Assembly: GCA_963757385.1 (NCBI GenBank)
Contig: CAVWRO010000006.1
Span: forward strand, 498,173-562,172
Direction: 5' to 3'
Source: an uncultured Acidobacteriaceae bacterium
GTDB taxonomy: Bacteria; Acidobacteriota; Terriglobia; Terriglobales; Acidobacteriaceae
DNA length: 64,000 bases
Both the position numbers and the translations under genes were made by a program. A model generated the notes under the pieces. It was not told the DNA's origin and did not search any database. It saw only the letters and a program-made list of their open reading frames with translations. Below, piece after piece: positions 4,128 to 19,825 of this stretch (position 1 is the stretch's first letter; the number at the start of each line of letters is the position of its first letter).

Positions 4128-5111
4128 TTAACGATGGACCGGCACATAAGCGAGGCGATATCTCAGCCGAACCCCTCTGTGCTGATTTCTCGCCGCTTCG
4201 GCCAGTGTCACAGCGAGTTTATGACGCTCGCCATCCAAAGTTTCTGGTTTGAATCCCAACTCGTATCGCCCGTGCAACTGTTGCAATATCTCTTTTAAAC
4301 CCGAAGCGTATGTCTCCGGAGTTACCCGCAAATACTCGCCACCGGTTTCGGTCGCAATATATTTCGCCACCGACCCCTGCTCGCCTAACGACCATATCCT
4401 CGGAGATCGGCGGTCCTTCAGACCATAGGCAACGGCTGACGTCTCCAAAAGGCCGTCAATGAAGTGATCGGCCTCTGACCTTGGCATTGCGCTGTAGTCC
4501 CCATAAAGGAAGATTAGCACCGGTATGGGTTCTGGCACTAACGACCGCGTGGTATCAATAATTAGTTGTAAAGTCTTCTGGAGGGCGAGTTCGCCGGGTC
4601 TTCCATGATTGTGTTGGGAGACCACAGGCGTCAGCACTTGCTGCAAGACGATAGTTGCCTCCTTGATGTCCGACGTTGGCAGCAGATCAAGTTTGGATTG
4701 GCCATCGTCGCACCAATGTGCCACTGCCACTCTGTCTTGCTGATCCACACTGTTCAGAGCCGGTTTGAAAAGATTAGTCTGTCCAGCAAACAGACCCGAT
4801 CCCTCGCCCTCCCAGCCTTGCATGTCGCATTGCACGACGAACCACAGTGCCAGAGGGCGAGTAGAAAATTGCGCCGCACTGTCAAACGTTTTGATCGAAA
4901 CCGGACGACCATTGTCGAAGACTTGAAAGTCAGCGAGCTTCAAAGTCTTGTCTGGAAGGCCATTCTTAAGCGCGACCACAGGCACTAGAACCAAATTTGA
5001 TGCACTGTGGAATATGGTTTCTGGAGATTGAGAAGAACGACCTTCCTGAGCAACCGCAGACCAAAGTGCGAAAAGAACTACTCCAGCGGAAAACGGAGCG
5101 ATCTTGATCAT
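4128..5111 (-). CDS. Secreted VWA-related protein (acidobacterial VWFA-related domain type).
   Basis: It has a signal peptide, then SNLVLVPVVALKNGLPDKTLKLADFQVFDNGRPVSIKTF. This is the characteristic N-terminal strand pattern of the TIGR03436-like family as I recall it. Confidence 0.7.
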   Translation of the reverse strand: MIKIAPFSAGVVLFALWSAVAQEGRSSQSPETIFHSASNLVLVPVVALKNGLPDKTLKLADFQVFDNGRPVSIKTFDSAAQFSTRPLALWFVVQCDMQGWEGEGSGLFAGQTNLFKPALNSVDQQDRVAVAHWCDDGQSKLDLLPTSDIKEATIVLQQVLTPVVSQHNHGRPGELALQKTLQLIIDTTRSLVPEPIPVLIFLYGDYSAMPRSEADHFIDGLLETSAVAYGLKDRRSPRIWSLGEQGSVAKYIATETGGEYLRVTPETYASGLKEILQQLHGRYELGFKPETLDGERHKLAVTLAEAARNQHRGVRLRYRLAYVPVHR

Positions 5112-5175
5112 TTACGGCATGTACGAAATTGAAAGGTAAAGAGTTTCTCTTTTTGTAAACGAAATTGGCCGTTGA

Positions 5176-6456
5176 TCAGGCGTAGATTCCGCGCTGCCGA
5201 ATGGTGTAAGCCACGCGATCAATCGCAAGCATGTAGGCGGCGATCCGGTTGTGGACGTTGTGAGTCTCGGCGTACCGGACTACATCCTCAAATGCGTTTT
5301 TCATGATGTGCTCGAGTTGCTCGTTGACGACAGATTCCTGCCAAAAATATCCCTGACGATCCTGGACCCATTCGAAATAGGAAGTGGTTACTCCACCGGC
5401 GTTGCAAAGAATGTCGGGGATCACAAAGACCTTTTTGTCCGCCAAAATCTCATCCGCCAATGCGGTGGTGGGACCGTTTGCTCCTTCCGCGAGGATTCTG
5501 CACTTCACGCGGTCGGCATTGCGGCTGGTGATCTGATTTTCAGTCGCAGCGGGAATCAGAATTTCGCACTCAGTGAGAAGCAATTCGTCAGGGTCGGCGG
5601 CCTCAGCTTCGGGGAAATCTTTGATGCTTCCATTTTGCTGCCGATACTGCACCAGGGCAGCAACGTCGAGTCCATTCTTGTTGTAGATGCTGCCGTTTAC
5701 TTCGATAACTCCCACGACTTTGTAGCCGGCCTGCGCCATTAAAAAAGCTGCATTGGAGCCGACATTGCCAAATCCCTGGATGATTACGCGGCTCAATTCC
5801 CGCGCGATCCCCAACTTCTTGATCGCTTCCTCGCAAACGACCATGATGCCGCGTCCGGTGGCTTCGCGGCGGCCGCGCGATCCTCCTATGTTCACAGGCT
5901 TGCCGGTCACCACGGCAGTTACAGTCTGCCGCATGTGCATGGAGTACGTATCCATGATCCACGCCATAACTTGCTCGTTGGTATTTATGTCCGGCGCGGG
6001 AACATCTTTTTCCGGGCCGATAAATTCGATAAGCTCGGCGGTGTAGCGGCGAGTCATGCGTTCAAGTTCGCCCATAGACATCTTGTGAGGGTCGCAAATG
6101 ACGCCACCTTTCGCGCCACCGAAGGGGATATTCACCACGGCGCATTTCCAGGTCATCCAACTGGCGAGGGCGCGGACTTCGTCGAGCGTTACGTCCGGGG
6201 AGTAGCGAATCCCGCCCTTACTGGGGCCGCGAGCGATGGAATGTTGCACTCGAAATCCGGTATAGACCTCCAATTTTCCATTGTCGAGAGCGACGGGAAT
6301 GTGGACGATGATTTCGCGGGTTGGATATCGAAGAACCTTCTGCAGGCCCTCGTCGAGATTTAATTTCTGGGCGGCAATGTCGAATCGGGCGGCCTGAGCC
6401 TCCCACGGATTGATTTCCTGCTCGAGGGAAAGGGCTTTCGTTGTTGTGGTCATCAT
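5176..6456 (-). CDS. gdhA: NAD(P)-specific glutamate dehydrogenase (Glu/Leu/Phe/Val dehydrogenase family).
   Basis: Catalytic-lysine box [14 protein letters not shown] and dinucleotide fold [12 protein letters not shown]. Length is 426 aa. Confidence 0.92.
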
Positions 6457-6521
6457 TTCGTGGTGGCAAACTCATCAAGTATAAGCAGGGGCATGGAGCG
6501 TAGCAAGGAGGCGTTCACTTA

Positions 6522-6688
6522 GGAGTGGCTTTGTTTTAGTCTGTGGCGTCATCCCGAGCTTGCGAGGGATCCTGCGCGTAGCGGGTATGCGCCAACCAGA
6601 AGAGCAACTGCACTACACGCGGGATTCTTCGGGACTGAAGTCCCTCAGAATGACGTCAAAGTAGATGATTTTCAAATTGAGCCACTAC
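6522..6688. repeat. MITE-like intergenic repeat, copy 1 (two inverted hairpin units plus imperfect terminal inverted repeats).
   Basis: The left end is ggagtggctttgttttag and the right end is ttcaaattgagccactac. The internal units are ggcgtcatcccgagcttgcgagggatc and cttcgggactgaagtccctcagaatgacgtc. The same modules recur at 17918-18094, 19327-19434 and 54327-54402. Confidence 0.6.
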
Positions 6689-6755
6689 ACATTGGTTGCG
6701 GTGAGGGGTAGGTTGTTGCGCCGATTAGTGAACTTTTTCATCTAACATAAATTGA

Positions 6756-7478
6756 ATGACTCCATTTCAAACTTACACAGCGCGCCTGAACCAGTCTCGC
6801 GCTTTATCGGAATACACCAAGCATCTGGAATTTGAGATGTGGGGAGTGCCGCGTTTTGGGTTCGTCGCCGGGCAATGGATGTCGTTTAAGTACACCAAGG
6901 CAGACGGGGAAGAGATCACCCGCGCGTATTCCATCGCATCTTCTCCCGGCGAAGACAATCGGTTCGCGCTATGCCTGAACCGGGTGCAGGACGGCTTCAT
7001 GTCGAACTTTCTTTGCGACATGAAGGAAGGCGATGAACTGAAGAGCCAGGGGCCATTTGGCGATTTTATTTTGCGGCCTCCGATGCGGGATACGAGTTTT
7101 ATTGCGACGGGAACAGGGATTGCTCCGTTTCGTTCCATGCTGCATTGGCTTCTGGCGGATGAGTCACGTCACCAGGGAAAACATATCTGGCTGATCTTCG
7201 GGAATCGCACCGAGAAAGACATTTACTATCACGATGAGTTCCTGCGTCTGACGCAAGATCACGGAAACTTCCACTACTTGCCAACGCTGAGTCGGGGCGC
7301 GCCGGAATGGCAGGGCCTTCGCGGATACGTCCAGGACCACGTTGCCTCCGTTGCGAAGGAGCGATCCGACATGCACGCCTACATCTGCGGATTAGACAAG
7401 ATGGTCAAGGCCAACCGTGACCTGCTGAAGAGCCTGGGATGGGATCGCAAATCCATTCTGTACGAAAAGTATGACTAG
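6756..7478 (+). CDS. Ferredoxin-NADP(+) reductase-like FAD/NAD(P)-binding oxidoreductase.
   Basis: RAYSIAS (RxYS FAD motif), GTGIAPFRSM (NAD(P)-binding GTGIAP motif) and a C-terminal YEKYD aromatic tail. Length is 240 aa. Confidence 0.85.
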   Translation: MTPFQTYTARLNQSRALSEYTKHLEFEMWGVPRFGFVAGQWMSFKYTKADGEEITRAYSIASSPGEDNRFALCLNRVQDGFMSNFLCDMKEGDELKSQGPFGDFILRPPMRDTSFIATGTGIAPFRSMLHWLLADESRHQGKHIWLIFGNRTEKDIYYHDEFLRLTQDHGNFHYLPTLSRGAPEWQGLRGYVQDHVASVAKERSDMHAYICGLDKMVKANRDLLKSLGWDRKSILYEKYD

Positions 7479-7501
7479 GGCCACATTTACGAGCCTTATG
7501 C

Positions 7502-8797
7502 TCAGGCTGGGGACGGGCTATCTTCTGGCACGACAATCGCCAAATCCGTGCCCGACGCTGGTTCCAGCAGCGGCCAACCTCGGCGCAGAACATGGTCCAA
7601 CCAGGTGCCCGCTGCCTGCGACGTGAGCACGGCGGCCAACACAAGTGTCGTATAAAACTTCGGACTGATAATCCCAGCGTCGAACGCTACGCTGGCTAAC
7701 ACGATACCCGGTCCGCCGCGTGCGTTCGTCGTGATTGCCAGATTGATCAGGTCCAACCCGCGGAAACCTGCTAAGCGGCCTGCCAGCGATACGGAAAGAA
7801 TCTTGGCGACGCAACTTCCGACGATAAAAATGGCCGCCATCCAAAATGAGAAGCCACGAACCAGATCGAGCTTCAATCCCACGATGGCGAAGTACAGCGG
7901 AATGAAAAATGCGAAGGACACCTTTCCTATCGAATCGAGAGCCTCCGAAAAAAGTCTGCGTTTCTTGTGTACGACGGCGAACCCGGCCAGAAAGGCCGCA
8001 AATACCACGCTGACGCCGAGCGCTCCGGCCACTACGCAATATCCGAATAAAACCGCAAGGGCGTAGCCCACGGGAGAGTGCTTCGCGAAAACGTTGAAGC
8101 GCGATTTGTTGATTCGCTTTACGACCCGGGGCAGGATGGTTAGGCCCAGCGCGAAAAACCCAACCGTCGTGAGCAGATGGTACAAGATTCCCCGCTTGTT
8201 CAGCATCGTCTTGCCCGCGAGGGCTGTCGCCACAGCCAGCGCCAGCCAGAGCACAATGTCCTCCAGCACAGCGACGCCGAGCACGAGCCGCGCGAAGCGG
8301 GTATGCAGAATTTTTAGGTCCGCGAATATCTTCGAGACCACTGGGACCGATGTCACCGCCACCCCAACTGCAAGAATAATAATTAGAGAGATGCGATTTC
8401 CATTGGGTCCCGCCAGCGCTGGCCGGACCAGCCACGAGCCCAGTGCTAGCGCGAGCACGAAGGGGATCCCCGTGCCTACTATGGCGAGCCAGCCCACTTG
8501 GCGGCGCTCTTCCCGGGAGAACAGCTCGCGCGTTTCCGCGCCAGATAAGAACATCAGCAACAGCAGGCCAAGCCAGTAAACGAAATTCAATACCGTCGCG
8601 TTGTGCTTGACCGCTTCCCCTAAGCCTGAAGCGACCGGCAATCGGGCGATCAAAGCCGGTCCCAGCACTACGCCAGCCATGATTTCGCCGACGACTTTCG
8701 GCTGCCGCAGCTTCACGAACAAGTAACCAAGCAACTGCGCCAGCCCCACCAGAAGCAATAGTACGAAGAGGATTGAGGTTAAATCGGAATTCGACAA
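7502..8797 (-). CDS. Cation:proton antiporter (Na+/H+ exchanger family, CPA2/Kef-like membrane domain).
   Basis: A 431 aa polytopic membrane protein. The N terminus LLVGLAQLLGYLFVKLRQPKVVGEIMAGVVLGP is the conserved TM1-2 signature of Na_H_exchanger proteins. Confidence 0.85.
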   Translation of the reverse strand: MSNSDLTSILFVLLLLVGLAQLLGYLFVKLRQPKVVGEIMAGVVLGPALIARLPVASGLGEAVKHNATVLNFVYWLGLLLLMFLSGAETRELFSREERRQVGWLAIVGTGIPFVLALALGSWLVRPALAGPNGNRISLIIILAVGVAVTSVPVVSKIFADLKILHTRFARLVLGVAVLEDIVLWLALAVATALAGKTMLNKRGILYHLLTTVGFFALGLTILPRVVKRINKSRFNVFAKHSPVGYALAVLFGYCVVAGALGVSVVFAAFLAGFAVVHKKRRLFSEALDSIGKVSFAFFIPLYFAIVGLKLDLVRGFSFWMAAIFIVGSCVAKILSVSLAGRLAGFRGLDLINLAITTNARGGPGIVLASVAFDAGIISPKFYTTLVLAAVLTSQAAGTWLDHVLRRGWPLLEPASGTDLAIVVPEDSPSPA

Positions 8798-8859
8798 GGG
8801 CGCTCCCGTCGCTTAGGATGCTGTCGGGGCGACAGGGTTTGGCAGCTGTGCCGAGCCTA

Positions 8860-9030
8860 CTGGCAAGTTTTTCCGGGGTTTTGGCCAGGAGCATGTGCCG
8901 CCCATTGCGAAGGGCAGATCCGATATGCATGCCTATATCTGGGGATAAGATGAGATGTCAAGGCGAACCGCGATCTGCTGACGGGCACGGGTGGGATCGC
9001 AAAGCGCTTTTGTATGAAAGGTACGATTAG
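8860..9030 (+). pseudogene. Decayed duplicate of the last ~50 codons of the FNR-like gene at 6756..7478.
   Basis: 8885-9030 aligns by eye with 7331-7478. About three quarters of positions are identical, there are at least three 1 nt indels, and a premature in-frame TAA follows the HAYIWG remnant. Both copies end ...GWDRK(S/A)(I/L)LYE(K/R)YD-stop. Confidence 0.7.
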
Positions 9031-9118
9031 GCGGAGACCGGGTTACCGGCCTTTCGCAAGGTGGAAAGAGCGTGCTAAAAGTGAAATCGTCCGATAGATT
9101 TAGACGGCGCCGAAAAAA

Positions 9119-9520
9119 ATGCAAGGAAAATGGGTCATTCGCTCCGTTGCACTACTCTTGCTTTGGCTCCCACATCAAGTGCATGGACAGGAATATTCAG
9201 TACGTGCTATTGATGCACAAAGCGGGAAAGCCTTGAAAGGAATACCAATTACTCTGCGATATGCCTGTATCCCGATGCGGTCGGGGCAAAAAACGAAGAT
9301 CCGTTGCAAGTATATTCAGAGAAGAACTGGGCCTGACGGCATCGCCCACTTCCCGGAAGCCGGATCTCTGGCTGATATTGACGATATATACTCTTTACCA
9401 ATCAGTTACGGAGCAATGTGCTGCGACATTTCTAAGCCGGCGATTCCCGGCATGGGTACAATCAAATTTAGACGGCGTTGGTTCGGTCAAATGCTTCAGT
9501 GGATTTTCGTCGGGGATTAA
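9119..9520 (+). CDS. Hypothetical secreted protein.
   Basis: Signal peptide VALLLLWLPHQVHG, then VRAIDAQSGKALKGIPITL, which resembles a carboxypeptidase-regulatory-like beta-sandwich start. The local sequence looks AT-richer than its neighbours. Confidence 0.45.
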   Translation: MQGKWVIRSVALLLLWLPHQVHGQEYSVRAIDAQSGKALKGIPITLRYACIPMRSGQKTKIRCKYIQRRTGPDGIAHFPEAGSLADIDDIYSLPISYGAMCCDISKPAIPGMGTIKFRRRWFGQMLQWIFVGD

Positions 9521-9722
9521 ATCCGATCCGTGTGAAACTGGTTTAGTATTCCGGAGGCGTAATCCTCCTTCTTTTTTCGTAACGCTAAACGCCCCAAATC
9601 TGCTACACTATAGATGCGTTTGATCTATCGGTTGACGAGCAGCTTCTTGCAAACCAGCTAGCACTGCCCTTAGTACCTCCGAACCATCAGCGTAAAATAA
9701 CTAAAAAGGATACAAGCAACAA

Positions 9723-9926
9723 ATGGCAGAACAAGGAACAGTAAAGTGGTTTAACGACGCCAAAGGGTACGGCTTCATCAGCCGTCAGAGTGGCGAAGAT
9801 GTATTTGTGCACTTCTCGGCGATTCAGGCAGGCGGCTTCCGCAGTCTGCAAGAAGGCCAGAGTGTGGAGTTCGAGGTCACCAAGGGACCAAAGGGCTGGC
9901 AAGCTGAGAACGTTCGCCCGCTGTAA
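9723..9926 (+). CDS. Cold-shock protein (CspA family, S1-like OB fold).
   Basis: [15 protein letters not shown] (RNP-1) and VFVHFSAI (RNP-2). Length is 67 aa. Confidence 0.95.
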
Positions 9927-9948
9927 AGCGGAAACATCTCAATAACAT

Positions 9949-9984
9949 GCGTGCTCGTAGCTAAAAAGATACGAGCACGCTTCT
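9949..9984 (+). terminator. Rho-independent terminator after the csp gene.
   Basis: A perfect 11 bp stem, gcgtgctcgta / tacgagcacgc, with a 10 nt loop, followed by ttct. It starts 23 nt after the stop. Confidence 0.7.
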
Positions 9985-10068
9985 ACGTGTGGGGCGGATA
10001 CTCGTTCTTGTTCGCGCCACATAAAACAATCTCTCCCCCGCACGAAACGCTTCGACTGGAGCTTCCAC

Positions 10069-10374
10069 ATGCAGGATGATTCGAAGGCCTCGTTTGCGGT
10101 CATTCGTCACAATGTTCGTACATATGAATCGGGCGGCGTCATGGCCGTCATTAAAGGGCGCGTCAACGCCGAAAGCACGCTTGGCCAGTTTGAACGTTCA
10201 CAAGCCTCGGAAGACAGGCACGCTGGGTGGCGATATTTCCTGGAAAAGACTGACCTGAAGGCAGGGATGAATCCCGCGGAAGCTACCAGCCTGCGCCAGA
10301 TGCGGCTCGAAGTCCGCGAATCCGAGGCACAGCAATTATCGGATCAGGTTCCGTTCACCCCGCGGAGCAATTGA
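10069..10374 (+). CDS. Hypothetical protein.
   Basis: Open frame only, with no recognisable motif. The start is uncertain. Confidence 0.35.
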   Translation: MQDDSKASFAVIRHNVRTYESGGVMAVIKGRVNAESTLGQFERSQASEDRHAGWRYFLEKTDLKAGMNPAEATSLRQMRLEVRESEAQQLSDQVPFTPRSN

Positions 10375-10464
10375 TTGGAATGCGGGGCGACTTCGCTCAG
10401 GGCAGGCTCTGTCCGCCGCTCTTGACCTCGCTTCTCACTCCCTACCCGATCCCACATTACACAA

Positions 10465-10815
10465 TCAATAATGCGGACGCCGGGTCTCCCGCAGGATCAT
10501 CGCGTAGTGTTTCCCTCCGAAGCTGAATCCTTCTTCGATCCGTCCAGTAACCGCCAGTTTTGCGTCGCGTCCGGGCAGGCCAAAGTTTTCGCTGAATACC
10601 CAGATGCGGCCAGTACCGTCGTCCAATTGGAATACTCCGGTCCCCATTGCGCCGATTGACGTCACCACGTGCCCGGCGATACTCATTTCCCTGCCCGCAA
10701 ACCGCCCCGGGGCTTGATCAATCCTGGCAATGCTCTCGCGCGAAGGACATCCCGCCATTAAAACAACCGCCATCAGAAGCAGACTTACCGCCAGAACGCG
10801 GATTTGAATTTGCAC
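10465..10815 (-). CDS. Small lipoprotein, possibly OB-fold.
   Basis: Signal peptide with lipobox LMAGC. The mature part is beta-rich (GHVVTSIGAMGTGVFQLDDGTGRIWVF). Confidence 0.6.
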   Translation of the reverse strand: MQIQIRVLAVSLLLMAVVLMAGCPSRESIARIDQAPGRFAGREMSIAGHVVTSIGAMGTGVFQLDDGTGRIWVFSENFGLPGRDAKLAVTGRIEEGFSFGGKHYAMILRETRRPHY

Positions 10816-11083
10816 ACTGGTTCTCCTCGATCAGGATTGACGTCCAGAGATTGACGATACGGATAGACGCAAAGTATTACCAACACGAAGAGGCTCGGAA
10901 AGTTGCATACTACTCACTGTGCAGGTCACCATCATTATCTCTTGAAGTTCACATTCAGGTAACTGACCGTATCCCCTTGACACTTCATACCTGCCAACAT
11001 TCCGCGTTCGGTGTCTAATCTTCTGGGAAGCGCAAGTCTGGCGATCGCTTGCGTTCAATATATGTCTGCGATCAGGAGGTTCT

Positions 11084-13204
11084 ATGCGCGTGTGGCTTCG
11101 TCTTTTTGTGTGCTTATTTCTAGCTCAGGTTGTACTCGCGCAATCGGGTACCCCAGCGGCTTCGGTTCGTCTTCCGGTGAAGCGGGTGATCCTTTACAAA
11201 AATGGCGTGGGATACTTCGAACACTCCGGCGAGGTAAGCGGCAACGAAGACGTCAACATTGACTTCACGACGGCTCAGCTCAATGACGTGCTTAAGTCTC
11301 TCACCGCGCTGGACCTCGGCAAAGGACGAATCACCGGCATCGCCTACAACTCGATTGATCCGATCAACAAGAGGCTGGGAGCGCTGCGGTTGCCGCTCGG
11401 AGAAGACACGACAACGGCCCAATTCCTCGATGCGATACGGGGCGCTCGAATCGAAGTGCACAGCGGCAGTGAGAGCGCCTCAGGCCGGCTACTGAGTGTG
11501 GAGCAAAGAGAATTGGCCGGCAAAGATGATCAGAAAATCACCGTGACTCAGATTTCCTTGGTGAGTGATAGCGGCGAGGTGCGCCAGTTTGATCTCACTC
11601 CGGCGACCAGCATTCGCATAGCAGAAAAAGATTTGAACGACGAGGTGGGACGCTATATGCATCTGGTCGCGTCCACGCGAGATCAGGATGTTCGCCGCCT
11701 CACCATTTCAACCGCTGGCGCCGGAGAACGCGAACTGCTGGTGAGTTATATCAGCGAGGTCCCTATATGGAAGTGCACCTACCGGATCGTGGTTCCTAAA
11801 GATGGAAAGCCGCTGCTGCAAGGATGGGCAATCGTTGACAACACGGTCGGCGAAGATTGGGACAACGTTGAGTTGTCGCTGATCGCAGGGGCTCCTCAGT
11901 CTTTTATACAGAACTTGTCGCAGCCTTATTACGCACGGCGTCCCGAAGTCCCCATGCCGGAGAATGCGATGATCACCCCGCAGACGGAAGAGGCGACGCT
12001 GGAAGGGAGGGCGGCCCTCCAAGCACCTCCTCCCCCTGTGTTCCAGGAAAATGGGCCTCCTGCCCCTGGCGCTCCTCCAATGAACGCGACGGGCGGAATG
12101 ATTGGCGGAGTGCTTTCCGCAACGATGAGTGCGCCGGTTCCCGGCGGGGCCTTTAAGCTGAAACAGGGAATAACTCAGCAGCAGAGATTTGATTTGATGG
12201 CTCAGGCCAACGCCAACACCGCCGAAACCCGCGACCTTGGGGATCTTTTTGAATATCAACTCAAAGATCACGTGACCATTCATAAGAATCAATCGGCGCT
12301 TGTGCCGATCCTTCAGGCGCGTGTTGAGGCAGAAAAAGTGTCGGTGTGGAATCCCAATGAAGGTCATGCTCTTCGCGCTCTGTGGCTGAACAATACCAGC
12401 GGCCTGACGCTCGATGGCGGGAGCTTCAACGTGCTCGACGACGATGCCTTCGCCGGTGAAGGCATCATGGATCCGGTCAAGCCGGACGAAAAGAGATTGC
12501 TCTCTTACGCCGCCGACCTTGGCCTCGTGGTGGACACGAAACAACAGGAACAGAGGCAGAGAGTCACGAAAGTGGTCATCGCTCGCGGTGTTATGACCTA
12601 CATCAGTGAACAGCAGCAAGAAATGGCATACACCATCCGAAACCGGGATACCTCGTCGCGGACGGTCGTGATTGAGCATCCTATTCAAAGCGGGTGGAAG
12701 CTGGACGAAGACATGCACCCGGATGAGAGCACTACTTCCTATCATCGCTTTCGCATGAGCATTGATCCGAAAAAGACTGAAACGCTCGTGGTGAAGGAGC
12801 ACCGCCCGATATCGAGCCGCTACGAGCTGACAAATCTTAATGACGACCAGATTGGATTCTTCCTCGAGCAGAAAATGATCAACCCCGAGGTAGAGAAGGC
12901 TCTGCGGCAGATCATTCGCCAAAAGAACGATGTCGCTGCACTACAAGCCGAAATTGATTCAAGGCAGGCGCAGATCACGAGTATTTCCCAAGATCAGCAG
13001 CGCGTGCGCGAAAATATGAAAGCGCTAAGGGGGAGCGCCGAAGAAAAGACATTAGTAGAACGCTACGCCCGCCAGCTGAATCAGCAGGAAGATCAAATGG
13101 AATCACTGCACAAACAGATTGCCGATTTGCAGCAGAAGCGTGACAACGCGCAGAAAATTCTAAACAATTCAGTACAACAATTGTCATTAGAAGCAAAAAT
13201 ATAA
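11084..13204 (+). CDS. Large secreted DUF4139/DUF4140-like protein (MuiA-type family) with a C-terminal coiled coil.
   Basis: Signal peptide, then VKRVILYKNGVGYFEHSGEV...VNIDFTTAQLNDVLKSL, which is typical of the DUF4140 N-terminal domain. The last ~100 aa are heptad-rich (ALQAEIDSRQAQITSISQDQQRVRENMKAL...). Confidence 0.65.
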   Translation: MRVWLRLFVCLFLAQVVLAQSGTPAASVRLPVKRVILYKNGVGYFEHSGEVSGNEDVNIDFTTAQLNDVLKSLTALDLGKGRITGIAYNSIDPINKRLGALRLPLGEDTTTAQFLDAIRGARIEVHSGSESASGRLLSVEQRELAGKDDQKITVTQISLVSDSGEVRQFDLTPATSIRIAEKDLNDEVGRYMHLVASTRDQDVRRLTISTAGAGERELLVSYISEVPIWKCTYRIVVPKDGKPLLQGWAIVDNTVGEDWDNVELSLIAGAPQSFIQNLSQPYYARRPEVPMPENAMITPQTEEATLEGRAALQAPPPPVFQENGPPAPGAPPMNATGGMIGGVLSATMSAPVPGGAFKLKQGITQQQRFDLMAQANANTAETRDLGDLFEYQLKDHVTIHKNQSALVPILQARVEAEKVSVWNPNEGHALRALWLNNTSGLTLDGGSFNVLDDDAFAGEGIMDPVKPDEKRLLSYAADLGLVVDTKQQEQRQRVTKVVIARGVMTYISEQQQEMAYTIRNRDTSSRTVVIEHPIQSGWKLDEDMHPDESTTSYHRFRMSIDPKKTETLVVKEHRPISSRYELTNLNDDQIGFFLEQKMINPEVEKALRQIIRQKNDVAALQAEIDSRQAQITSISQDQQRVRENMKALRGSAEEKTLVERYARQLNQQEDQMESLHKQIADLQQKRDNAQKILNNSVQQLSLEAKI

Positions 13205-13268
13205 ACGGGGAGGCGACGATATAAACGGGCGGTCGGAGGCTCGCATTAGAATATTGTGGCGATAGTTT

Positions 13269-14144
13269 ATGAAGCGCGGAACAAACTTATTTATGTTGGC
13301 CATGATACTTCTGGTGGCCCTTCCAGGCTGGGCTGTTGGGAAACACGCCATCTCGGGTCTGGTGCTGGAGGTGGATCCTTCGCGTCATTCCATGACCGTG
13401 TCATGCCAGAAGGTTCCTGGCTACATGGACGCGATGGCGATGCCATTCGACGTTCGTGACGCCAAGTTATTAGAAGGAGTAAAGCCGGGTGCAACCATTG
13501 ATTTCACTCTTGTAGAGGATGGAAATTCATCCTACGCGGAGAACATCCGGGTGCGACGGTATCAGAACTTGGAACTGGAGCCGCTGGAAGCGCGTCGCCT
13601 CGCGATTCTGAGCAATCTCGCGAATCCCTCTGCAACAAAGGCGCTGAGCGTGCAACAATCAGTTCCGGACTTCACGCTTACCGACCAGAACCGTAAGGCG
13701 ATTAGCTTTTCGCAACTCAAAGGGCAGGTGGTGGCTCTGAGTTTCGCCTATGTGCGCTGCCCGAATCCCGCATATTGCTTCCGGCTTACCAGCAATCTCG
13801 GCGAACTCAAAAAACGCTTTTCCGGACGCATGGGCCGTGATCTGGTTTTGCTCACGATTATTATTGATCCGGAACACGACCAGCACGATGCCATTGCGAA
13901 TTATGCGAAGATCTGGAACGCCGACCCGCAGACCTGGCATTTTGTGACCGGACCTTTACCGGAAGTACAAAGGGTATCCCGCATGTTCGGAATGGAGTTC
14001 TGGAATGATGACGCCCTGCTCGTGCATTCATTTCACACTGCAATCATTGATCGCCAGGGAAAGCTTTTTGCCAACCTCGAAGGAAACCAGTTTACGTCGC
14101 GGCAACTAGGCGATTTGGTGCAGACAGTGTTGGACCGGCCATAA
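13269..14144 (+). CDS. SCO1/SenC-family thioredoxin-like copper chaperone with an N-terminal CusF-like domain.
   Basis: The N-terminal LVLEVDPSRHSMTVSCQKVPGYMDAMAMPFDV resembles a CusF/copper-binding beta-barrel with a Met motif. The thioredoxin fold carries VRCPNPAYCF in place of the canonical CxxxC. Confidence 0.8.
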   Translation: MKRGTNLFMLAMILLVALPGWAVGKHAISGLVLEVDPSRHSMTVSCQKVPGYMDAMAMPFDVRDAKLLEGVKPGATIDFTLVEDGNSSYAENIRVRRYQNLELEPLEARRLAILSNLANPSATKALSVQQSVPDFTLTDQNRKAISFSQLKGQVVALSFAYVRCPNPAYCFRLTSNLGELKKRFSGRMGRDLVLLTIIIDPEHDQHDAIANYAKIWNADPQTWHFVTGPLPEVQRVSRMFGMEFWNDDALLVHSFHTAIIDRQGKLFANLEGNQFTSRQLGDLVQTVLDRP

Positions 14145-14230
14145 AGCCAGTCGCGACGACAAGACTACGTTTCTCAGGGAAAGTTTAACGATGCGCTTAT
14201 TGATCGAAGTGTACGCGTAGTGAGTCTTGT

Positions 14231-15079
14231 ATGAAATACACTTTGCCGTTCCTCCTGATGTGCGTGGTTTGCGGCGTACTTCTCTTCGGACAAGATAGCC
14301 CGCCATCAAGCAGCCGCGCGGAGTCCTCGGCCGAGACCGCGAATGGTCAGGATGCCAATAAGCCGAAACCGGGAATTACACCCCACCCCCTCGAGGTTCT
14401 CAGCGACACAGGAGGTATCAACTTACATTCGTACTTCAGCCAGATGGCGCAACTAATAAAAGCGGCTTGGTATTTGAACGTTCCCGACATCGCTCGCGCA
14501 CCAGTGAGGAAAAGGGGAAAGGTCGCCGTAGGATTCCGGGTCATGAAAGACGGTAAGATTGAAGATGTGCACTATGTTGAAAGTTCCGGCGACACCTCGC
14601 TAGATCAAGCGGCTTATAACAGTATTACGATCTTAAGCGGAGTCTTACCGCTTCCGAAAGAATTTGCATGTCAATACATCGTTCTTCGGTTTCACTTCCT
14701 CTACAACCCCGACAAAGCCAGCCTTATCGCTCATCCGCCTCAAGAAAATGCGTTACTGCCGTGTGTTACGACTAAGATTCACATGGTCGGGCAGATCGGA
14801 ATAGAAATATCTCCCACTTCAGTCCAACTGGCGACGAACGCGAAGCAACAATTTTCAGCCACTGTGACGGTGGATGCGTCGTCTGCGGTAAGTTGGATCG
14901 TAGCCGGTCCAGGCTGCTCGGCTTCCACATGTGGCACCATCTCAGCGGAAGGGCTTTACTTTGCCCCCGCGAGGATTCCGGATTCCGCCACAATCATGGT
15001 GACAGCGACCATAGCCGACAAGCCCAGCGAAACTGCCTCCGCCAGTGTAAAGATAACTCCTGAGAGCCCTTCGCGTTAG
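14231..15079 (+). CDS. Secreted protein with a TonB C-terminal-like domain followed by an Ig-like (Big_2-type) domain.
   Basis: KRGKVAVGFRVMKDGKIEDVHYVESSGDTSLDQAAYNSI matches the TonB_C pattern. The C terminus IEISPTSVQLATNAKQQFSATV...VSWIV...GTISAEGLYFA is Big_2-like. Confidence 0.65.
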   Translation: MKYTLPFLLMCVVCGVLLFGQDSPPSSSRAESSAETANGQDANKPKPGITPHPLEVLSDTGGINLHSYFSQMAQLIKAAWYLNVPDIARAPVRKRGKVAVGFRVMKDGKIEDVHYVESSGDTSLDQAAYNSITILSGVLPLPKEFACQYIVLRFHFLYNPDKASLIAHPPQENALLPCVTTKIHMVGQIGIEISPTSVQLATNAKQQFSATVTVDASSAVSWIVAGPGCSASTCGTISAEGLYFAPARIPDSATIMVTATIADKPSETASASVKITPESPSR

Positions 15080-15104
15080 CTGAGGAGGGCGACGTCTAAA
15101 ATCC

Positions 15105-16169
15105 CTAAGCCACGCGCTGCTGTTTTTTGAGCATGGCGAAGAATTCCATCACGATTTCCTCGTCCCACAAGCCGGTGCGGGCTTCGATGCGCATGGTTTC
15201 GGCGGCTTGCTCATGGGTCCGGGCCGGCTTGTATGGGCGCGCGGTGCGCAGGGCGTCATACACATCCACTACTTGCAGGACTCGCGGAAGCAGCGGGATT
15301 TCTCCCTTTCGAAGACCATCCGGATAACCGCTTCCGTCGGAGTGCTCGTGATGGTTACGGATAATGGGAAGCACAAGCCGCAAAGACTTCAGAGGCCGGC
15401 AAATTCTTTCCCCAGTTAACGGGTGCTGCTTCATGATCTCCCATTCTTGAGAAGTGAGATCGGATCCCTTTTTCAGAATTTCATCTGGAACGGCAATCTT
15501 TCCCAGATCGTGCAGGTATCCGCCCCTGCGTAGAGCCACAATTGAATCTTGATCGAGCCCCAGATGTCTTCCTAAGTGGGCCGCGTTCTGCGCCAAGCGC
15601 TCACAATGGCCGTCGGTGTAAGTGTCGCGGCTTTCTACGCTCAGGGCCAGCGAGCAAATGACAGACTCGGCAGTCTCCAATTCGTCGGTGAATTCCTTCA
15701 GCTTGAGAAGCGACTTAACCCGGGCAAAAAGTTCTTCGGAATAAACCGGCTTACTTATAAGGTCGTCGGCACCCGCTTCGATCGCTCGCAGCTTATCGTC
15801 ACGATCACCGAGCCCTGTCATCAGCACGAACGGGATCAATCGCGTGGATGGATCTTCTTTCAGTTGCCGGCAAAATTCGTATCCGGACATGCCCGGCATA
15901 ATCACATCCGAAAGAATCAGATCAGGAAGGCACTGTCTGATTTGCTTCAAGGCACTGGCCGCATCGGCGGCGGTGTTTACGTTGTATCCTGCACCAGAGA
16001 GAAGATGAACCATTACCGCCGTAAGTTCGGGATTATCGTCAACCACCAACACCTGAGCCAGGCGACGGTGTGGAATTAATTTACCCATACCATCGTAAGA
16101 CTGGGCGTCGCTTGAAAACGTTGTCCGATGTCTCTTTTGCAGAACTCTCTTTTGCGGAATCATGACCAA
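15105..16169 (-). CDS. Response regulator with an HD-GYP phosphodiesterase output domain (RpfG-like).
   Basis: Receiver VLVVDDNPE...DLILSDVIMPGMSGYEF. HD-GYP motifs HDLGKIAVP and HHEHSDGSGYPDGL. Confidence 0.9.
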   Translation of the reverse strand: MVMIPQKRVLQKRHRTTFSSDAQSYDGMGKLIPHRRLAQVLVVDDNPELTAVMVHLLSGAGYNVNTAADAASALKQIRQCLPDLILSDVIMPGMSGYEFCRQLKEDPSTRLIPFVLMTGLGDRDDKLRAIEAGADDLISKPVYSEELFARVKSLLKLKEFTDELETAESVICSLALSVESRDTYTDGHCERLAQNAAHLGRHLGLDQDSIVALRRGGYLHDLGKIAVPDEILKKGSDLTSQEWEIMKQHPLTGERICRPLKSLRLVLPIIRNHHEHSDGSGYPDGLRKGEIPLLPRVLQVVDVYDALRTARPYKPARTHEQAAETMRIEARTGLWDEEIVMEFFAMLKKQQRVA

Positions 16170-16293
16170 TTCAGGAACTACTATTGTAAAAGATAATGCG
16201 CGTTGGAATGCGGGAACACAATTCCCAAGTAGGTACGCGAAGTCAAAATTGTGTCATCTGCCCTTGTTTCTTCTCCGAAACTGCGTCTAGCTT

Positions 16294-16995
16294 TTGGTTA
16301 TGCGGAATTTCTCAAAAGCACTTTCTCTACTACTGCTGGCTGGTTTTTCGTTCGGCGCCAGTAAACCTCATGTCATCGGCTTTGGTAAGACGATCTCGGC
16401 CAAATGGCGCGTGGGAGCCGATGAAAGCCATTCCATAGAAATAAAGGTTAGGCCCCTTTATATAGATAGCCGGCTGAAAGAGTTTACGCTGGGGCCGCCG
16501 CATGACGTGACTGACCATCTTTTCGTGGTGCAGCGGGCCTTTCGCTTGAATGATGCGTTGCCCGACGATCGAAATGCCGCGCTGAAATGGCAGTGGCATC
16601 GCGGGGGTTGGCTGCTGGTGGATCGGGTTTCCGGTCACGTTTCGCAACTTGCCCTGCCCGAGTTTGATACTTACTATTCGGCATCGAGTTGGTACCGGGA
16701 TTACGTGGCGTATTGCGGCGTATCGGATGACGGAGAAAAACTCTATGCGGTGGTAGCGCAGATTGGCCGACGAAAAGCTATTCTGAAAAAGTCTTTGGGA
16801 TCAACCGCGGCGACTGACGCAGGAAGTAACTCGCCAAAAAACGACTTGCCTGATTCGGAATGTCCCGCGCCCTCGTGGCAGCGTCAACCTGCGCGGGTTA
16901 CATTCGCGCCTAAAGGACAGGCGTTCACGTATTCAATCCGCGGGCATGACGTAGAAGTGGTGACGGTCAATGACAGTGAAGAGGGAACCGAGTAG
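16294..16995 (+). CDS. Hypothetical secreted protein.
   Basis: Signal peptide LSLLLLAGFSFGA. No recognisable motif. The 3' end overlaps the convergent rhomboid gene by 112 nt. Confidence 0.55.
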   Translation: MVMRNFSKALSLLLLAGFSFGASKPHVIGFGKTISAKWRVGADESHSIEIKVRPLYIDSRLKEFTLGPPHDVTDHLFVVQRAFRLNDALPDDRNAALKWQWHRGGWLLVDRVSGHVSQLALPEFDTYYSASSWYRDYVAYCGVSDDGEKLYAVVAQIGRRKAILKKSLGSTAATDAGSNSPKNDLPDSECPAPSWQRQPARVTFAPKGQAFTYSIRGHDVEVVTVNDSEEGTE

Positions 16996-17852
16996 CGGCT
17001 GGCTGACGGCAATGGAGGTGCGCCGCTGTTCGCATGTCTCAAAACATTGAAAAACATAAATAGGATTACTGCGGTTATTACAAAAACCCCCCAATTCCAG
17101 CGGCTGCGTACGTCCGGCGAATCGGTCAGATGCCTCGCCAGGACTGCCCCAAGGATGAGTCCCGTCAACAGTCCTCCAATGTGCGCGGAATTGTCTATGC
17201 CAGCCCCAACGGCCCCGAATAGCAGGTTATAACCTGCGAAAGCCACCAGGCTCCTCATAATGCCGCGCGTGGCTTGTTTAGGAATTGGAAGTTTTCCGAG
17301 ATACAGCGCCGTGATTAGCGCGCCTGCCAATCCAAAGATGGCTCCCGAAGCGCCAGCCCCATACACCATGGGATGCCACCACAGGCTTCCCAAACTCCCG
17401 GCGATACCGCACGCCGTATACGTCAGTACGTATGTCCAGCGATCGAAGATTCGTTCCGCGAGAACGCCAAGATTCCAAAGACACCACATATTCAGGGCGA
17501 TGTGAATAATTCCGATGTGGACATAGTTGGAGGTCAAAAGCCGCCACGGTTGGGGTCCGAGCGAGAGCGGTCCCCAATCCGCGCCCCATTTCAACAATTG
17601 CGTAGAGGTGGGACTCTCGATAGGCACTCCTGCAAGCAACATCATGACGAACACCGCTGTGTTGATTCCGACGAGTATCGTTGTTATGGGCGGATACCCG
17701 CGTGCAGCTGTGCGAGGCTGAGGAGTAGGCGTGGCCGTCGAGCCAGCAGTGGTCATATCAATGGCGTTGGAGCGGCAATCCTGGCAAACGTTGCCACGGC
17801 TGCCGAAAAGCGATGTTCGCAGTTCCCGCCCGCAAGTGATGCAATTTGCCAT
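16884..17852 (-). CDS. Rhomboid-family intramembrane serine protease with an N-terminal zinc ribbon.
   Basis: CITCGREL...CQDCRS zinc ribbon. Rhomboid motifs YVHIGIIHIALNM and GASGAIFGL (catalytic Ser), plus the later AHIGGLLTG (catalytic His). Confidence 0.88.
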   Translation of the reverse strand: MANCITCGRELRTSLFGSRGNVCQDCRSNAIDMTTAGSTATPTPQPRTAARGYPPITTILVGINTAVFVMMLLAGVPIESPTSTQLLKWGADWGPLSLGPQPWRLLTSNYVHIGIIHIALNMWCLWNLGVLAERIFDRWTYVLTYTACGIAGSLGSLWWHPMVYGAGASGAIFGLAGALITALYLGKLPIPKQATRGIMRSLVAFAGYNLLFGAVGAGIDNSAHIGGLLTGLILGAVLARHLTDSPDVRSRWNWGVFVITAVILFMFFNVLRHANSGAPPLPSASRYSVPSSLSLTVTTSTSCPRIEYVNACPLGANVTRAG

Positions 17853-17917
17853 CCTAGAAAGTCAGAGTGCCTAGCCTAACATCCCGCGCAGAGATTGGTT
17901 TGCGAATGCCGCGGAGA

Positions 17918-18094
17918 GTAGTGGCTCAATGTGAACAAATCTTTAAATGACGTCATCCTGAGGAACTTCAGTCCCAAAGGATCTCGCGTGCAGCGTGTTG
18001 GCCTTGCCTTTAGCGCCAATCCGCTCCACGCGAGATCCCTCGCAAGCTCGGGATGACGCCTAATTAAGACAGAAATTTCAAACTGAGGCACTAC
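17918..18094. repeat. MITE-like intergenic repeat, copy 2 (the best-preserved copy).
   Basis: The ends gtagtggctcaatgtgaa and ttcaaactgaggcactac are imperfect inverted repeats. The internal units gacgtcatcctgaggaacttcagtcccaaaggatctcgcgtg and cacgcgagatccctcgcaagctcgggatgacgcc are inverted relative to each other. Confidence 0.65.
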
Positions 18095-18138
18095 GCCGCG
18101 ACGACATAGAGCAGGCTCCACTCCCAGACTAGGCGGTG

Positions 18139-19095
18139 TCACTCTTCAACCATCTCCAGAGAAGACACCTTTTCGACTCTGACTCGCGATTTCACGTTGG
18201 CGCTGGTCACCAACACTACCGATGCGATCACAATGGCGCTCCCGGCAAGGATGTATCCATCAACTTTTTCGTGAAGCACCAGCCATCCCAGAAACACCGC
18301 CACAATTGGATTCACATAGGCATAGGTCGAAACCTTGGAAGTCGAGACATGGTTCAAAAGCCAGATGTAAGCCGTGTACCCAATCCACGATCCGCAGATA
18401 ACGAGATAGAGAACCGCGCTGGTTCCTCGGATAGTCCACACCACGCGCGAGGAATCGCGCAAAACAGCCGCGATCAGAAGACACACTACTCCAGCTGAGA
18501 TCATTTGCCAGGCAGTGGCAGAAAACTGGTCCACTTCAGCCGATTTCCATTTTCTCGCCAGCACCGAACCCAGGGCCCAGCTGAACGCTCCCCCGAGCAA
18601 GCTAAGGGCTGCCCATAGCTGCACACGTCCGAAAGAGCTGGTTGCGGTCAGGTCGGGCCACAACAATACGATCATTCCAACAATGCCTAAACCAAGGCCC
18701 GCTTTGCCGAGCAAGGGCACATGGTGATCGCCGAGCAGCAGCCTATCTAATAAGAGGAACCACAACGGAATAATCGCGACGATCAGCGCGGCAAGCCCCG
18801 ACCCGATATGAGTCTCCGCATAAGCGAGAGTCAGGTTGCCTCCCACGAGCAATAGCACTCCGACGACCGCCATGTGTGCCAGTTCTCCAGGTGAATACGC
18901 AATTTTGCGCCCTCGAATTCCACAGAATGCAAGCATGAAAACGCCTGCGATGAGAAACCGAATGCCACACATTAAGGCCGGAGGAATATGCTCCACAGCC
19001 ACGTCAATGCCGAGATAAGTTGATCCCCAAAAGAAGTAAACCAATGCGAAGGCGAAAATGACACTCCATCGGGATGTGGGGTTAGGCGGAGACAT
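18139..19095 (-). CDS. EamA/DMT-family transporter.
   Basis: 318 aa with ten predicted TM helices in two EamA-like halves. The N terminus FALVYFFWGSTYLGI is typical. Confidence 0.88.
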   Translation of the reverse strand: MSPPNPTSRWSVIFAFALVYFFWGSTYLGIDVAVEHIPPALMCGIRFLIAGVFMLAFCGIRGRKIAYSPGELAHMAVVGVLLLVGGNLTLAYAETHIGSGLAALIVAIIPLWFLLLDRLLLGDHHVPLLGKAGLGLGIVGMIVLLWPDLTATSSFGRVQLWAALSLLGGAFSWALGSVLARKWKSAEVDQFSATAWQMISAGVVCLLIAAVLRDSSRVVWTIRGTSAVLYLVICGSWIGYTAYIWLLNHVSTSKVSTYAYVNPIVAVFLGWLVLHEKVDGYILAGSAIVIASVVLVTSANVKSRVRVEKVSSLEMVEE

Positions 19096-19326
19096 GATAA
19101 GCGGGCTGACTGATAAGAGTGGGCAAGTGCTATCTACGATTCAGAGGAGTACAAGAAAGTTCAGGAAAGACTTCGCTCACGTCAACCGGAGGATGAAGGT
19201 TATCCGATGCGCCCCTCGGAAGCTGTGAAGTGTGAAGAAGACAGCCGACGGACAAACCGTCACTAAATTTCCAATGTTCCTGGATTTTGTATGAACTCCG
19301 CGATGTTCGGTCCAGTTAACGAGTGG

Positions 19327-19434: not shown

Positions 19435-19450
19435 CAACGAGTGTGATCAA

Positions 19451-19479: not shown

Positions 19480-19484
19480 GAATT

Positions 19485-19561
<77 letters not shown>

Positions 19562-19811: not shown

Positions 19812-19825
19812 TCAAGCCTCAATTT

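Follow-up and report, generated by a model that had tools for sequence, protein, structure and literature searches.

A decayed copy of a flavin reductase gene end beyond a single antiporter gene in an acidobacterial chromosome

A short part of the chromosome of an uncultured soil bacterium of the Acidobacteriaceae holds the same gene end twice, on either side of a single gene, and the question is which event left the second copy behind. The window, i.e., the whole stretch of DNA that was analyzed, comprises 64,000 nucleotides (GenBank assembly GCA_963757385.1, contig CAVWRO010000006.1). Its plus strand carries an intact gene for a 240-aa FNR-like flavin reductase (6756–7478), whose product matches PF00970 (FAD_binding_6, 52.8 bits) and PF00175 (NAD_binding_1, 100.1 bits) above both cut-offs; a search of NCBIfam reached no equivalog. 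Orthologs of FNR with 73–92% amino acid identity are found in 12 genomes of the genus and family. A 23-nt spacer (7479–7501, read off the sequence) separates the FNR stop codon from that of a convergent antiporter gene on the minus strand (7502–8797). Beyond the 5′ region of the antiporter gene, the 3′ end of FNR recurs as a decayed copy, the relic (8850–9030, plus strand). A sequence-only reading of the locus had noticed this layout and proposed that a single cargo gene was gained, either by a Campbell-type single crossover or with an element carrying a replacement gene end.

Local alignment of 7200–7500 with 8798–9060 pairs 7331–7479 with 8885–9031 at 77–78% identity with five single-base gaps. 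The alignment score of 130 compares with 17.6 ± 2.2 (maximum 29) in 300 shuffles, so the recurrence of the FNR end in the same orientation is highly significant, and an independent repeat search recovers the same pair, broken in two by the indels. Weaker similarity had been traced back to about 8860, which was slightly conservative: in a multiple alignment with the FNR genes of relatives, the copy reaches left, ungapped, to about 8850, corresponding to FNR 7296. The repeat thus consists of 7296–7478 (plus strand), which encodes the last ~60 FNR codons and the stop, and 8850–9030. The left junction of the relic is sharp, with the antiporter 5′ region set against FNR position ~541, and is identical in the window’s genome (G000) and in the second species that carries a relic (G010). 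On the right, similarity in the window’s genome ends at the FNR stop codon plus 1–2 nt, as had been read from the sequence, and beyond it the sequences after the relic and after the FNR stop resemble each other at chance level. In G010, the 12 nt that follow the relic match the FNR–antiporter spacer of the window at 11 of 12 positions, collinear and in register.

The second copy, which corresponds to FNR codons ~181–240, is readable only across three frames (AEPTGKFFRGFGQEHVPPIAKGRSDMHAYIWG followed by a stop, VKANRDLL, and GWDRKALLYERYD followed by a stop). The 1-nt indels and the premature TAA that had been noticed in it are borne out by the five gaps and by the stop at 8946–8948 (plus strand), where FNR has a Leu codon. 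Positions 8790–9130 recur without a single difference (100% identity) in two further contigs, L210 from an ENA metagenome and L211 from another run in Logan. Hence, the relic is no assembly artefact and is the same in two other assemblies of the species. One other species of this Terriglobales genus has an orthologous relic, which is seen in G010 and three more of its assemblies. The Jukes–Cantor (JC) distance between the two relics (0.34) matches the distance at 4-fold sites between the two species (0.35–0.40), and the relic therefore evolves neutrally. In sum, 8850–9030 duplicates the last ~60 FNR codons, has no function and decays neutrally. Second FNR sequence upstream of codon ~180 was found neither in the 41 genomes searched nor in the eight lineages with this gene order at the locus, and no relative has a longer second FNR copy. 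Neither of the outcomes that the sequence-only reading had named as fatal to it, a lack of significant similarity or a relic that belongs to a second paralog in relatives, has thus come about.

The antiporter is the sole gene between the copies, as had been stated before. It encodes 431 aa from a TTG start, and the protein matches PF00999 (Na_H_Exchanger) over residues 22–405 with 158.5 bits (cut-off 26.2; E 2.9e-46). Against TIGR00932 of NCBIfam it scores 129 bits, which is under the 238-bit subfamily cut-off. It is thus a predicted CPA2-type cation/proton antiporter with an Na_H_Exchanger domain over the whole protein. Its 5′ region (8798–8849, minus strand), which travels with the gene, holds GGGAG (reverse complement of 8804–8808), a −10-like GCATCCTAAG (reverse complement of 8812–8821) and a −35-like CAAACCC (reverse complement of 8835–8841). 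The motif CAAAC(C/T)-N16-18-GCATC(C/T)(T/A)A recurs upstream of antiporter orthologs in more than 10 unrelated genomic contexts and might represent the promoter.

On the other side of the relic, outside the repeat, lies a filler (9031–9569, plus strand) that is specific to the species and has no DNA match in 11 other genomes of the genus. It contains an ORF for 133 aa (9119–9520, plus strand; GC3 0.47) with a signal-peptide-like N-terminus, which has no Pfam or NCBIfam match and no paralog in the genome, and a terminator-like hairpin (9553–9568, plus strand). The conserved right flank follows (9570–9926, plus strand), made up of promoter, leader and gene of a cold-shock protein (Csp; 9723–9926, plus strand, PF00313 match). 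This flank is 90–94% identical in all lineages, including the antiporter-less G003, in which an unrelated 670 nt stand between FNR and the Csp leader. A match to the cspA thermoregulator (9614–9981, E 3.9e-11, below the gathering score) is the sole Rfam match in 6300–10000. The spot upstream of the antiporter promoter is hypervariable, and its content differs lineage by lineage.

The order FNR–antiporter–Csp is common to eight lineages, six of which lack the relic, among them both outgroup lineages, which form the sister clade. The spacer between FNR and the antiporter varies from 19 to 35 nt in the clade of six species and measures 7–9 nt in the two outgroup lineages. In a maximum likelihood (ML) tree the two relics fall together as one clade (97/92 support), so that they have a single origin. 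The relic derives from FNR of its own subclade (74–79% identity vs. 67–70% to more distant congeners), and in the tree it groups with the functional FNR ends of the six-species clade (88/82), although other placements are not rejected (p-AU 0.22–0.32). This placement points to a relic younger than the split from the sister clade, where the antiporter likewise occupies the FNR site. A tree of the 17-kb rpoBC region has the topology (G003,(G000,((G008,G010),(G006,G004)))), in which the window’s genome is basal and the other relic carrier is nested. A sister relationship of the two carriers, which would allow one late gain, is rejected by this tree (p-AU 4e-7) and also disfavored by the local tree of FNR and antiporter (p-AU 0.086). 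The relic thus predates the six-species radiation and, as it is missing in most descendants of that ancestor, was lost at least 2–3 times. No remnant was detected in the relic-less G006, G004, L176, L173 and L174; what had looked by eye like a pattern in the last two proved no better than shuffled sequence. In G008, a 27-nt match to the relic is reached by 2–3 of 1000 shuffles. Measured against the depth of the relic split, and thereby of the radiation, the relic is 1.48 times as old (95% interval 1.11–2.10), and the antiporters of the two clades with the gene next to FNR have diverged by 1.5–2.2 times that depth. These ranges overlap, which is no proof of a common arrival.

Did the intact FNR end come from outside? 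Compared with the antiporter-less G003, FNR is most similar over its last 180 nt (86% identity vs. 71–79% elsewhere). Moreover, third-position divergence from G003 and L173 is 0.52–0.61 in this part vs. 0.64–1.04, which makes it the least diverged quarter of the gene. On this identity profile, a foreign origin of the intact end is rejected. The layout described in the sequence-only reading holds, but the intact end shows no sign of being a foreign replacement. Between the two antiporter-bearing clades, third-position divergence is 0.82 in FNR 1–360 vs. 0.55 in FNR 361–720 plus the antiporter (P = 0.002, raw), a contrast that loses significance when normalized by the distance within clades (P = 0.086). 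The lower divergence is a weak hint that this segment may have been shared between the clades at a later time.

The antiporter itself also has orthologs elsewhere. At the FNR site, in five species, identity is 93–94%; in G001 and G009, where the gene stands at other positions, it is 81%. Three other sites are occupied in G001, G009 and one metagenome lineage. In G001 and G009 the antiporter is a precise 1.4-kb insertion, and the two sites are uninterrupted in 8 and 4 other genomes of the genus, respectively. In G003, FNR and Csp are present with no antiporter between them, i.e., the locus shows a presence/absence difference of a single gene. Neither the ORFs and Pfam matches across 4128–13204 nor the gene tables of the eight lineages with the arrangement contain a recombinase. 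The unit shows neither terminal inverted repeats nor a conserved 3′ end, and at the three other sites it has no FNR-like end and no att-like repeats. FNR-like sequence was likewise not found near antiporter orthologs at other loci, and none of the 46 loci obtained in a metagenome search with the antiporter protein (30–87% identity) adjoins FNR. The antiporter thus behaves as a bare promoter-plus-ORF unit that is mobile without a recombinase. Of the earlier proposal that a single cargo gene was gained without a recombinase, both the single-gene difference and the lack of a recombinase stand; the overlap in age does not tie the relic to the arrival of the antiporter. A foreign composition of the gene finds no signal in GC3 (0.69 vs. 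0.62–0.66 in the neighbors). Two general rules were considered and dropped: a relic of the neighboring gene does not accompany the antiporter at 16 other loci, where no neighbor-gene end is duplicated, and the antiporter abuts a convergent gene within 35 nt at only ~13 of 33 loci.

We tentatively favor the relic as the scar of an insertion-duplication of the single-crossover (Campbell) type, a reading to which we give nearly, though not quite, an even chance. Donor DNA would have carried the 3′ end of FNR joined to the antiporter unit, and one homologous crossover with the chromosomal FNR 3′ end would have inserted it; equivalently, the antiporter unit might have entered with a duplication of ~180–190 nt of its target. 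The copy contiguous with the FNR body would have stayed under selection. The second copy would have decayed because it has no 5′ part, gathering frameshifts and a stop, and would later have been deleted in most descendant lineages. On this view, a single event would have produced the duplication and introduced the antiporter to the six-species clade. Such scars are known from E. coli, in which single crossovers of circularized fragments left duplications of gene ends of 109–950 bp on either side of the insert in 56 of 60 recombinants (PMC3240628). At the FNR locus, the first copy runs on from the body of the gene, the second begins abruptly on the far side of the antiporter unit, and in neither species is the relic followed by a remnant of a second antiporter; these observations argue for insertion-duplication. 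Against it, the predicted empty site, with FNR directly before the sequence at 9031 and beyond, occurs in no genome searched; the sequence-only reading had named this arrangement as one to look for in relatives, and 9031–9569 is unique to the species. Also against it, the relic is missing from six of the eight FNR–antiporter–Csp lineages, nothing marks the intact FNR end as foreign, the ML tree puts the relic with the six-species clade’s own FNR ends (88/82), and the 16 other antiporter loci have no duplicated neighbor-gene end. Furthermore, FNR and the antiporter must already have been neighbors in the donor of a single crossover, which therefore cannot explain the first arrival of the antiporter here.

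The main rival, which we regard as unlikely but worth serious weighing, is a later tandem duplication. A 1.55-kb unit of FNR 3′ end, spacer, antiporter and promoter would have been doubled on the stem of the six-species clade, and an illegitimate deletion would then have taken out the second antiporter, so that only the second FNR end was left. Bacteria frequently form tandem duplications, and the antiporter at the FNR site is more widespread (eight lineages) than the relic (two). The grouping of the relic with the clade’s own FNR ends and the 11 of 12 spacer-like nucleotides in G010 also speak for this rival. However, similarity to the antiporter 3′ end is absent after the relic in both species: when the 200 nt after the relic in G000 and G010 were compared with the region after the FNR stop in five genomes, the scores were at chance level (reached by 99–147 of 500 shuffles). 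Two events are required, and the deletion must begin no more than ~15 nt from the FNR stop. Homologous recombination usually removes tandem duplications precisely and without trace, and no lineage was seen with two tandem antiporter copies. Another candidate source of the relic is a complete second FNR paralog that once stood in tandem and had its 5′ two-thirds replaced when the antiporter was inserted. The geometry and the higher identity to the subclade’s own FNR are compatible with such a paralog. Yet we consider it hardly credible, given that FNR sequence of a second copy upstream of codon ~180 is missing throughout the genomes and lineages searched, that both species share the left boundary, which adjoins the antiporter 5′ region, and that an extra duplication of the full gene would be required.

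Two alternatives remain. A double-strand break just upstream of the antiporter promoter might have been filled with ~180 nt templated from the FNR 3′ end, separately from the arrival of the antiporter. The spot is indeed hypervariable, and compared with G006 and G004 the extra sequence of the relic genomes begins a few bases past the shared antiporter 5′ region. Such a patch would nevertheless end at the stop codon and lie in direct orientation by coincidence, no flanking microhomology is recognizable after so much decay, and nothing comparable exists at the 16 other antiporter loci, which makes this origin improbable. Very improbable in our view is the remnant of an integrative element that targeted the FNR 3′ end, supplied a new end in the manner of e14 and phage 21 at icd, and later lost its integrase and remaining parts by deletion. 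The icd system has the same layout, in which the intact gene runs into the insert and a C-terminal pseudogene lies beyond it, and a similar length scale, ~60 codons here (PMC13626634). On the other hand, 4128–13204 and the eight lineages contain no integrase or recombinase, the functional FNR end is the most G003-like part of the gene and therefore not foreign, and the same antiporter unit stands at three other sites with neither an FNR-like end nor att-like repeats.

Several known systems resemble the locus. In the insertion-duplications at lacZ ends after E. coli conjugation (PMC3240628), a direct repeat of a gene 3′ end flanks the insert, one copy completes the gene while the other lacks the 5′ part, and no dedicated recombinase is needed; the ~180-nt repeat here lies inside the experimental range. 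Unlike in those crosses, the event at the FNR locus is ancient, the relic having accumulated ~0.17–0.2 neutral substitutions per site, and the cargo, instead of a plasmid marker, is a chromosomal gene for an antiporter, which may have come together with the duplication. In E. coli K-12, e14 (and phage 21) supplies icd with a replacement 3′ end and leaves the C-terminal pseudogene icdC (Hill et al., 1989, as cited in PMC13626634). Intact gene, insert and a direct C-terminal fragment of a few tens of codons are arranged as at the FNR locus, which differs in having no integrase or phage genes, a single-gene cargo and a functional end that is not detectably foreign. The FNR relic is also far more decayed than icdC (77% identity, frameshifts, stop). 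Homology-facilitated illegitimate recombination (HFIR) during natural transformation or conjugation similarly gains foreign DNA by one-sided homology and without the recombinase of a mobile element. However, its typical outcome is not a duplication but the loss of a stretch of recipient DNA about as long as the insert (PMC3240628), whereas the FNR locus shows a duplication. Pseudogenes left by collapsed tandem duplications share the truncated, decaying copy of a neighboring gene in direct orientation within 1.5 kb, but the rest of a duplicated unit, i.e., a second antiporter, is not detectable at this locus.

The FNR relic is thus an ordinary kind of scar, and the nomadic antiporter is a mildly interesting side result. 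The relic is a dated footprint of a rearrangement at the FNR end before the six-species radiation. It also shows that some lineages of soil acidobacteria can keep ~180 nt of non-functional DNA over ~0.2 neutral substitutions per site, while others delete it. Recombinase-free, homology-assisted gene gain has so far been characterized mainly in laboratory crosses. If the relic is the scar of such an event, it would be a natural case. More useful for genome evolution is the antiporter as a single-gene unit with precise insertions at different sites in congeners and no hallmark of a mobile element. One could even imagine a bare mobile gene of ~1.4 kb that hops in Terriglobales chromosomes by a host-driven, target-duplicating mechanism, with the FNR relic as a footprint of ~180 nt and a short duplicate in G001 as another; we consider this distinctly unlikely. 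The duplicate in question is a possible 9-nt copy of the end of the neighboring gene at the G001 site.

The FNR-like flavin reductase gene (6756-7478, plus strand; PF00970 and PF00175) lies between a glutamate dehydrogenase gene (GDH; 5176-6456, minus strand) and a convergent CPA2-type antiporter gene (7502-8797, minus strand; PF00999, E 2.9e-46), beyond which follow a small plus-strand ORF without relatives (9119-9520) and a cold-shock protein gene (Csp; 9723-9926, plus strand). In a local alignment, 7331-7479 at the end of the FNR-like gene recurs at 8885-9031 with 77-78% identity and five one-base gaps, at a score of 130 compared with 17.6±2.2 (maximum 29) for shuffles, and a repeat search of the sequence recovers the same pair. 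The same-orientation duplication of this gene end beyond the antiporter, proposed in the sequence-only reading, is thus borne out. The second copy (the relic) needs three reading frames and carries a TAA at 8946-8948, which agrees with the premature stop and 1-nt indels described earlier. Both copies terminate in ...LYE(K/R)YD and a stop codon and, as had also been claimed, similarity ceases exactly there in the window's genome. The leftward extension of the repeat is real as well, with a slightly wider edge than the ~8860 first suggested: a multiple alignment with relatives' FNR genes carries the relic ungapped to ~8850, corresponding to FNR position 7296. Since 8790-9130 is identical in one ENA metagenome contig and in one Logan contig from another run, the relic is no assembly artefact.

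We compared the locus with genomes of 11 other species in the genus and with lineages added by look-up of near-identical antiporter proteins. Four of the 11 species (G006, G004, G008 and G010) share the order FNR, convergent antiporter, Csp, and the look-ups add three further species-level lineages (L176, L173 and L174/175). In G003, FNR and Csp are separated by an unrelated 670 nt with a minus-strand ORF and without the antiporter; the remaining species have FNR in other surroundings. Only two of the species compared, the window's and G010, carry the relic, and four independent assemblies of the latter have it in identical form. In both carriers it begins directly after the conserved 5′ region of the antiporter (...GGGTTTGGCAGCTGT|GCCGAGCC...). 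The predicted empty site, with FNR followed directly by the sequence from 9031 onward, was not found because 9031-9569, including the small ORF, has no DNA match in the 11 other genomes of the genus.

What lies between the antiporter promoter and the Csp leader changes greatly from lineage to lineage: this hypervariable spot holds the relic and a 133-aa ORF in the window, the relic and a 70-aa ORF in G010, a small membrane ORF in G008, an acetyltransferase and a 154-aa ORF in L176, and 65-100 nt in G006, G004, L173 and L174. The 133-aa ORF is species-specific and secreted-looking, with a GC3 of 0.47 and its own terminator-like hairpin (within 9031-9569). Within the small ORF of G008 (L024), 236-261 nt beyond the antiporter −35 box, 27 nt match the end of FNR (AAGGG--TTGAATCTGATCGCAAATCC). 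The score of this match is attained by only 2-3 of 1000 shuffles; the stretch is non-collinear with the relic but may be all that is left of it in this lineage. On the right, an Rfam match of cspA-thermoregulator-like kind covers the Csp leader and gene (9614-9981; E 3.9e-11; at 50.5 bits it falls short of the gathering score, 78) and accounts for the strongly conserved block that starts at ~9570 in all lineages.

The two relics form one clade in a maximum-likelihood tree of FNR 3′ ends (support 97/92) and hence have a single origin. An alignment of the 17-kb rpoBC region yields (G003,(G000,((G008,G010),(G006,G004)))), where G000 is the window's genome, with starred support at the inner nodes, and the local FNR plus antiporter tree likewise pairs G010 with G008. 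A clade of G000 and G010 is rejected on the rpoBC alignment (p-AU 4e-7). By this topology, the last common ancestor of the two carriers is the ancestor of the whole six-species clade (the species of this tree except G003, together with L176). G008, G006/G004 and L176 must each have lost the relic after that ancestor. The Jukes-Cantor (JC) distance between the relics (0.34) is close to what the species themselves show at 4-fold sites (0.35-0.40); hence, the relics have evolved neutrally since the species split. To date the relic, we counted change at codon positions one and two alone, at which the functional gene is almost constant. Relative to the depth of the split between the two relics, the relic's path is 1.48 times as long (bootstrap 95% interval 1.11-2.10; P(≤1.05)=0.011), and the relic thus predates the radiation. 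Antiporter divergence between the six-species clade and the sister pair L173/L174 is 1.5-2.2 times the within-clade distance. The age of the relic overlaps that of the antiporter at this site, an overlap that does not tie the two to one event. In the maximum-likelihood tree, the relic groups with the functional ends of the six-species clade and not outside both clades (88/82); alternative placements are not rejected (p-AU 0.22-0.32).

The sequence-only reading had regarded the intact end as a possible replacement gene end. We find no foreign sign: between antiporter-bearing genomes and antiporter-less G003, identity peaks in the last 180 nt of FNR (86% versus 71-79% elsewhere). Third-position divergence between the clades is 0.82 in FNR 1-360 versus 0.55 when FNR 361-720 and the antiporter are taken together (difference 0.28, P=0.002), a contrast that is not significant once normalised by within-clade distance (P=0.086) and hints at most at sharing of the 3′ half of FNR and the antiporter by the clades once they had split.

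We tentatively prefer, at slightly short of even chances, an insertion-duplication of the single-crossover type as the origin of the relic. A circular molecule with an FNR 3′ end and the antiporter would recombine with the chromosomal FNR end, and the single crossover would leave the observed layout; insertion in one step with a long duplication of the target would give an identical picture. Our preference rests on the following: one event suffices, both limits of the relic, its start exactly at the border of the antiporter unit and its end at the gene's stop, are explained, the age estimate is compatible, and a second antiporter copy leaves no trace in the sequence after the relic. Against it, the relic is absent in six of the eight lineages, sister clade included, its placement in the tree suggests that it arose later than the split of the clades, and a donor with FNR and antiporter already adjacent is required. 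These weaknesses would be accounted for by a tandem duplication of a 1.55-kb unit with subsequent deletion of the second antiporter copy, to which an 11/12-nt in-register match in G010 also points. This match is the extent of its positive trace and two events are needed, and we consider it unlikely. A break-repair patch appears improbable. A decayed e14-like element is very improbable, given that there is no integrase and that the functional FNR end is not foreign, and a truncated second FNR paralogue, of which no longer copy occurs in the 41 genomes searched or in the eight lineages at this locus, is the least probable of all.

Among the closest known systems are laboratory single-crossover insertion-duplications, which the relic locus fits in form and perhaps in history; in E. 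coli crosses, 56 of 60 recombinants carried a gene end duplicated over 109-950 bp by such events (PMC3240628). Also among the closest is icd/e14/icdC in E. coli K-12 (PMC13626634), but the relic locus shows neither of two features that define it, a recombinase and a foreign gene end. In itself the relic is an ordinary kind of scar.

More interesting is the bare antiporter gene, which is precisely inserted at different sites in congeners. Its composition is unremarkable (GC3 0.69 versus 0.62-0.66 in neighbouring genes). Orthologues with 81% amino acid identity lie at other sites in G001 and G009, G008 has a second, frameshifted copy elsewhere, and no FNR-like sequence lies near any of these three. 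In G001 (L061, C3:~702478-703882), a clean 1405-nt insertion of 82 nt 5′ region, ORF and ~24 nt separates two genes with just 2 nt between them in the window's genome; eight other genus genomes have this site without an interruption. On the promoter side of the insertion stand the 9 nt that end the neighbouring gene (GTGCTGTAA), and a similar end (GTCATTTAA) stands on the opposite side; only 6/9 bases match, and the pair is possibly a short target duplication. The G009 site (L062, C1:~321127-322601) is uninterrupted in four other genus genomes. In a metagenome lineage (L112:~4920-6300), the antiporter adjoins fabD at a site empty in most genus genomes (G010, G004, G006, G001, G002 and G007, the last with a somewhat longer gap; window-genome equivalent G000:C11:~96640-96740, L209) and rearranged in G011, G003 and G009. 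A different ~870-nt insert occupies it in G008 (C53:131530-132409) and G005 (C9:29865-30737), and it may be an insertion hot spot.

Within the genus or close to it, orthologues occupy four distinct chromosomal sites. At each, promoter and ORF form a precise insertion of ~1.4 kb between two genes that adjoin one another in the window's genome. At 46 metagenome loci with 30-87% identical antiporters, there are at least 14 different downstream neighbours, FNR at none. The travelling unit comprises a promoter-like motif, RBS, ORF and at most ~25 nt past the stop. The motif, CAAAC(C/T)-N16-18-GCATC(C/T)(T/A)A, is conserved ~15-25 nt before the start codon in unrelated contexts (window 8798-8849; L061, L062, L112, L115, L118, L119, L122, L134 and L150) and is a putative promoter of ECF-sigma type, which it resembles. 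The unit has no terminal repeats, the copies examined have no recombinase gene nearby, and a duplicated neighbour-gene end is found at 0 of 16 other antiporter loci. These insertions support the earlier idea of a single-gene gain without a recombinase, though not any particular mechanism.

Some copies look broken. The second G008 antiporter (L060, G008:C22:250984-252153) and that of L176 (4652-5945) are each split over two frames, as are both antiporter (4885-6179) and FNR (6189-6910) in L173; these may be pseudogenes or assembly errors. Elsewhere in the window, ~19600-31000 lacks a DNA match in the five closest genomes (query 11000-30999). Copies of a MITE-like dispersed repeat lie between FNR and GDH (6522-6688) and at 17911-18100; the latter copy has dozens of partial matches in each of the five closest genomes, among them the equivalent FNR-GDH spacer of G008 and G010.
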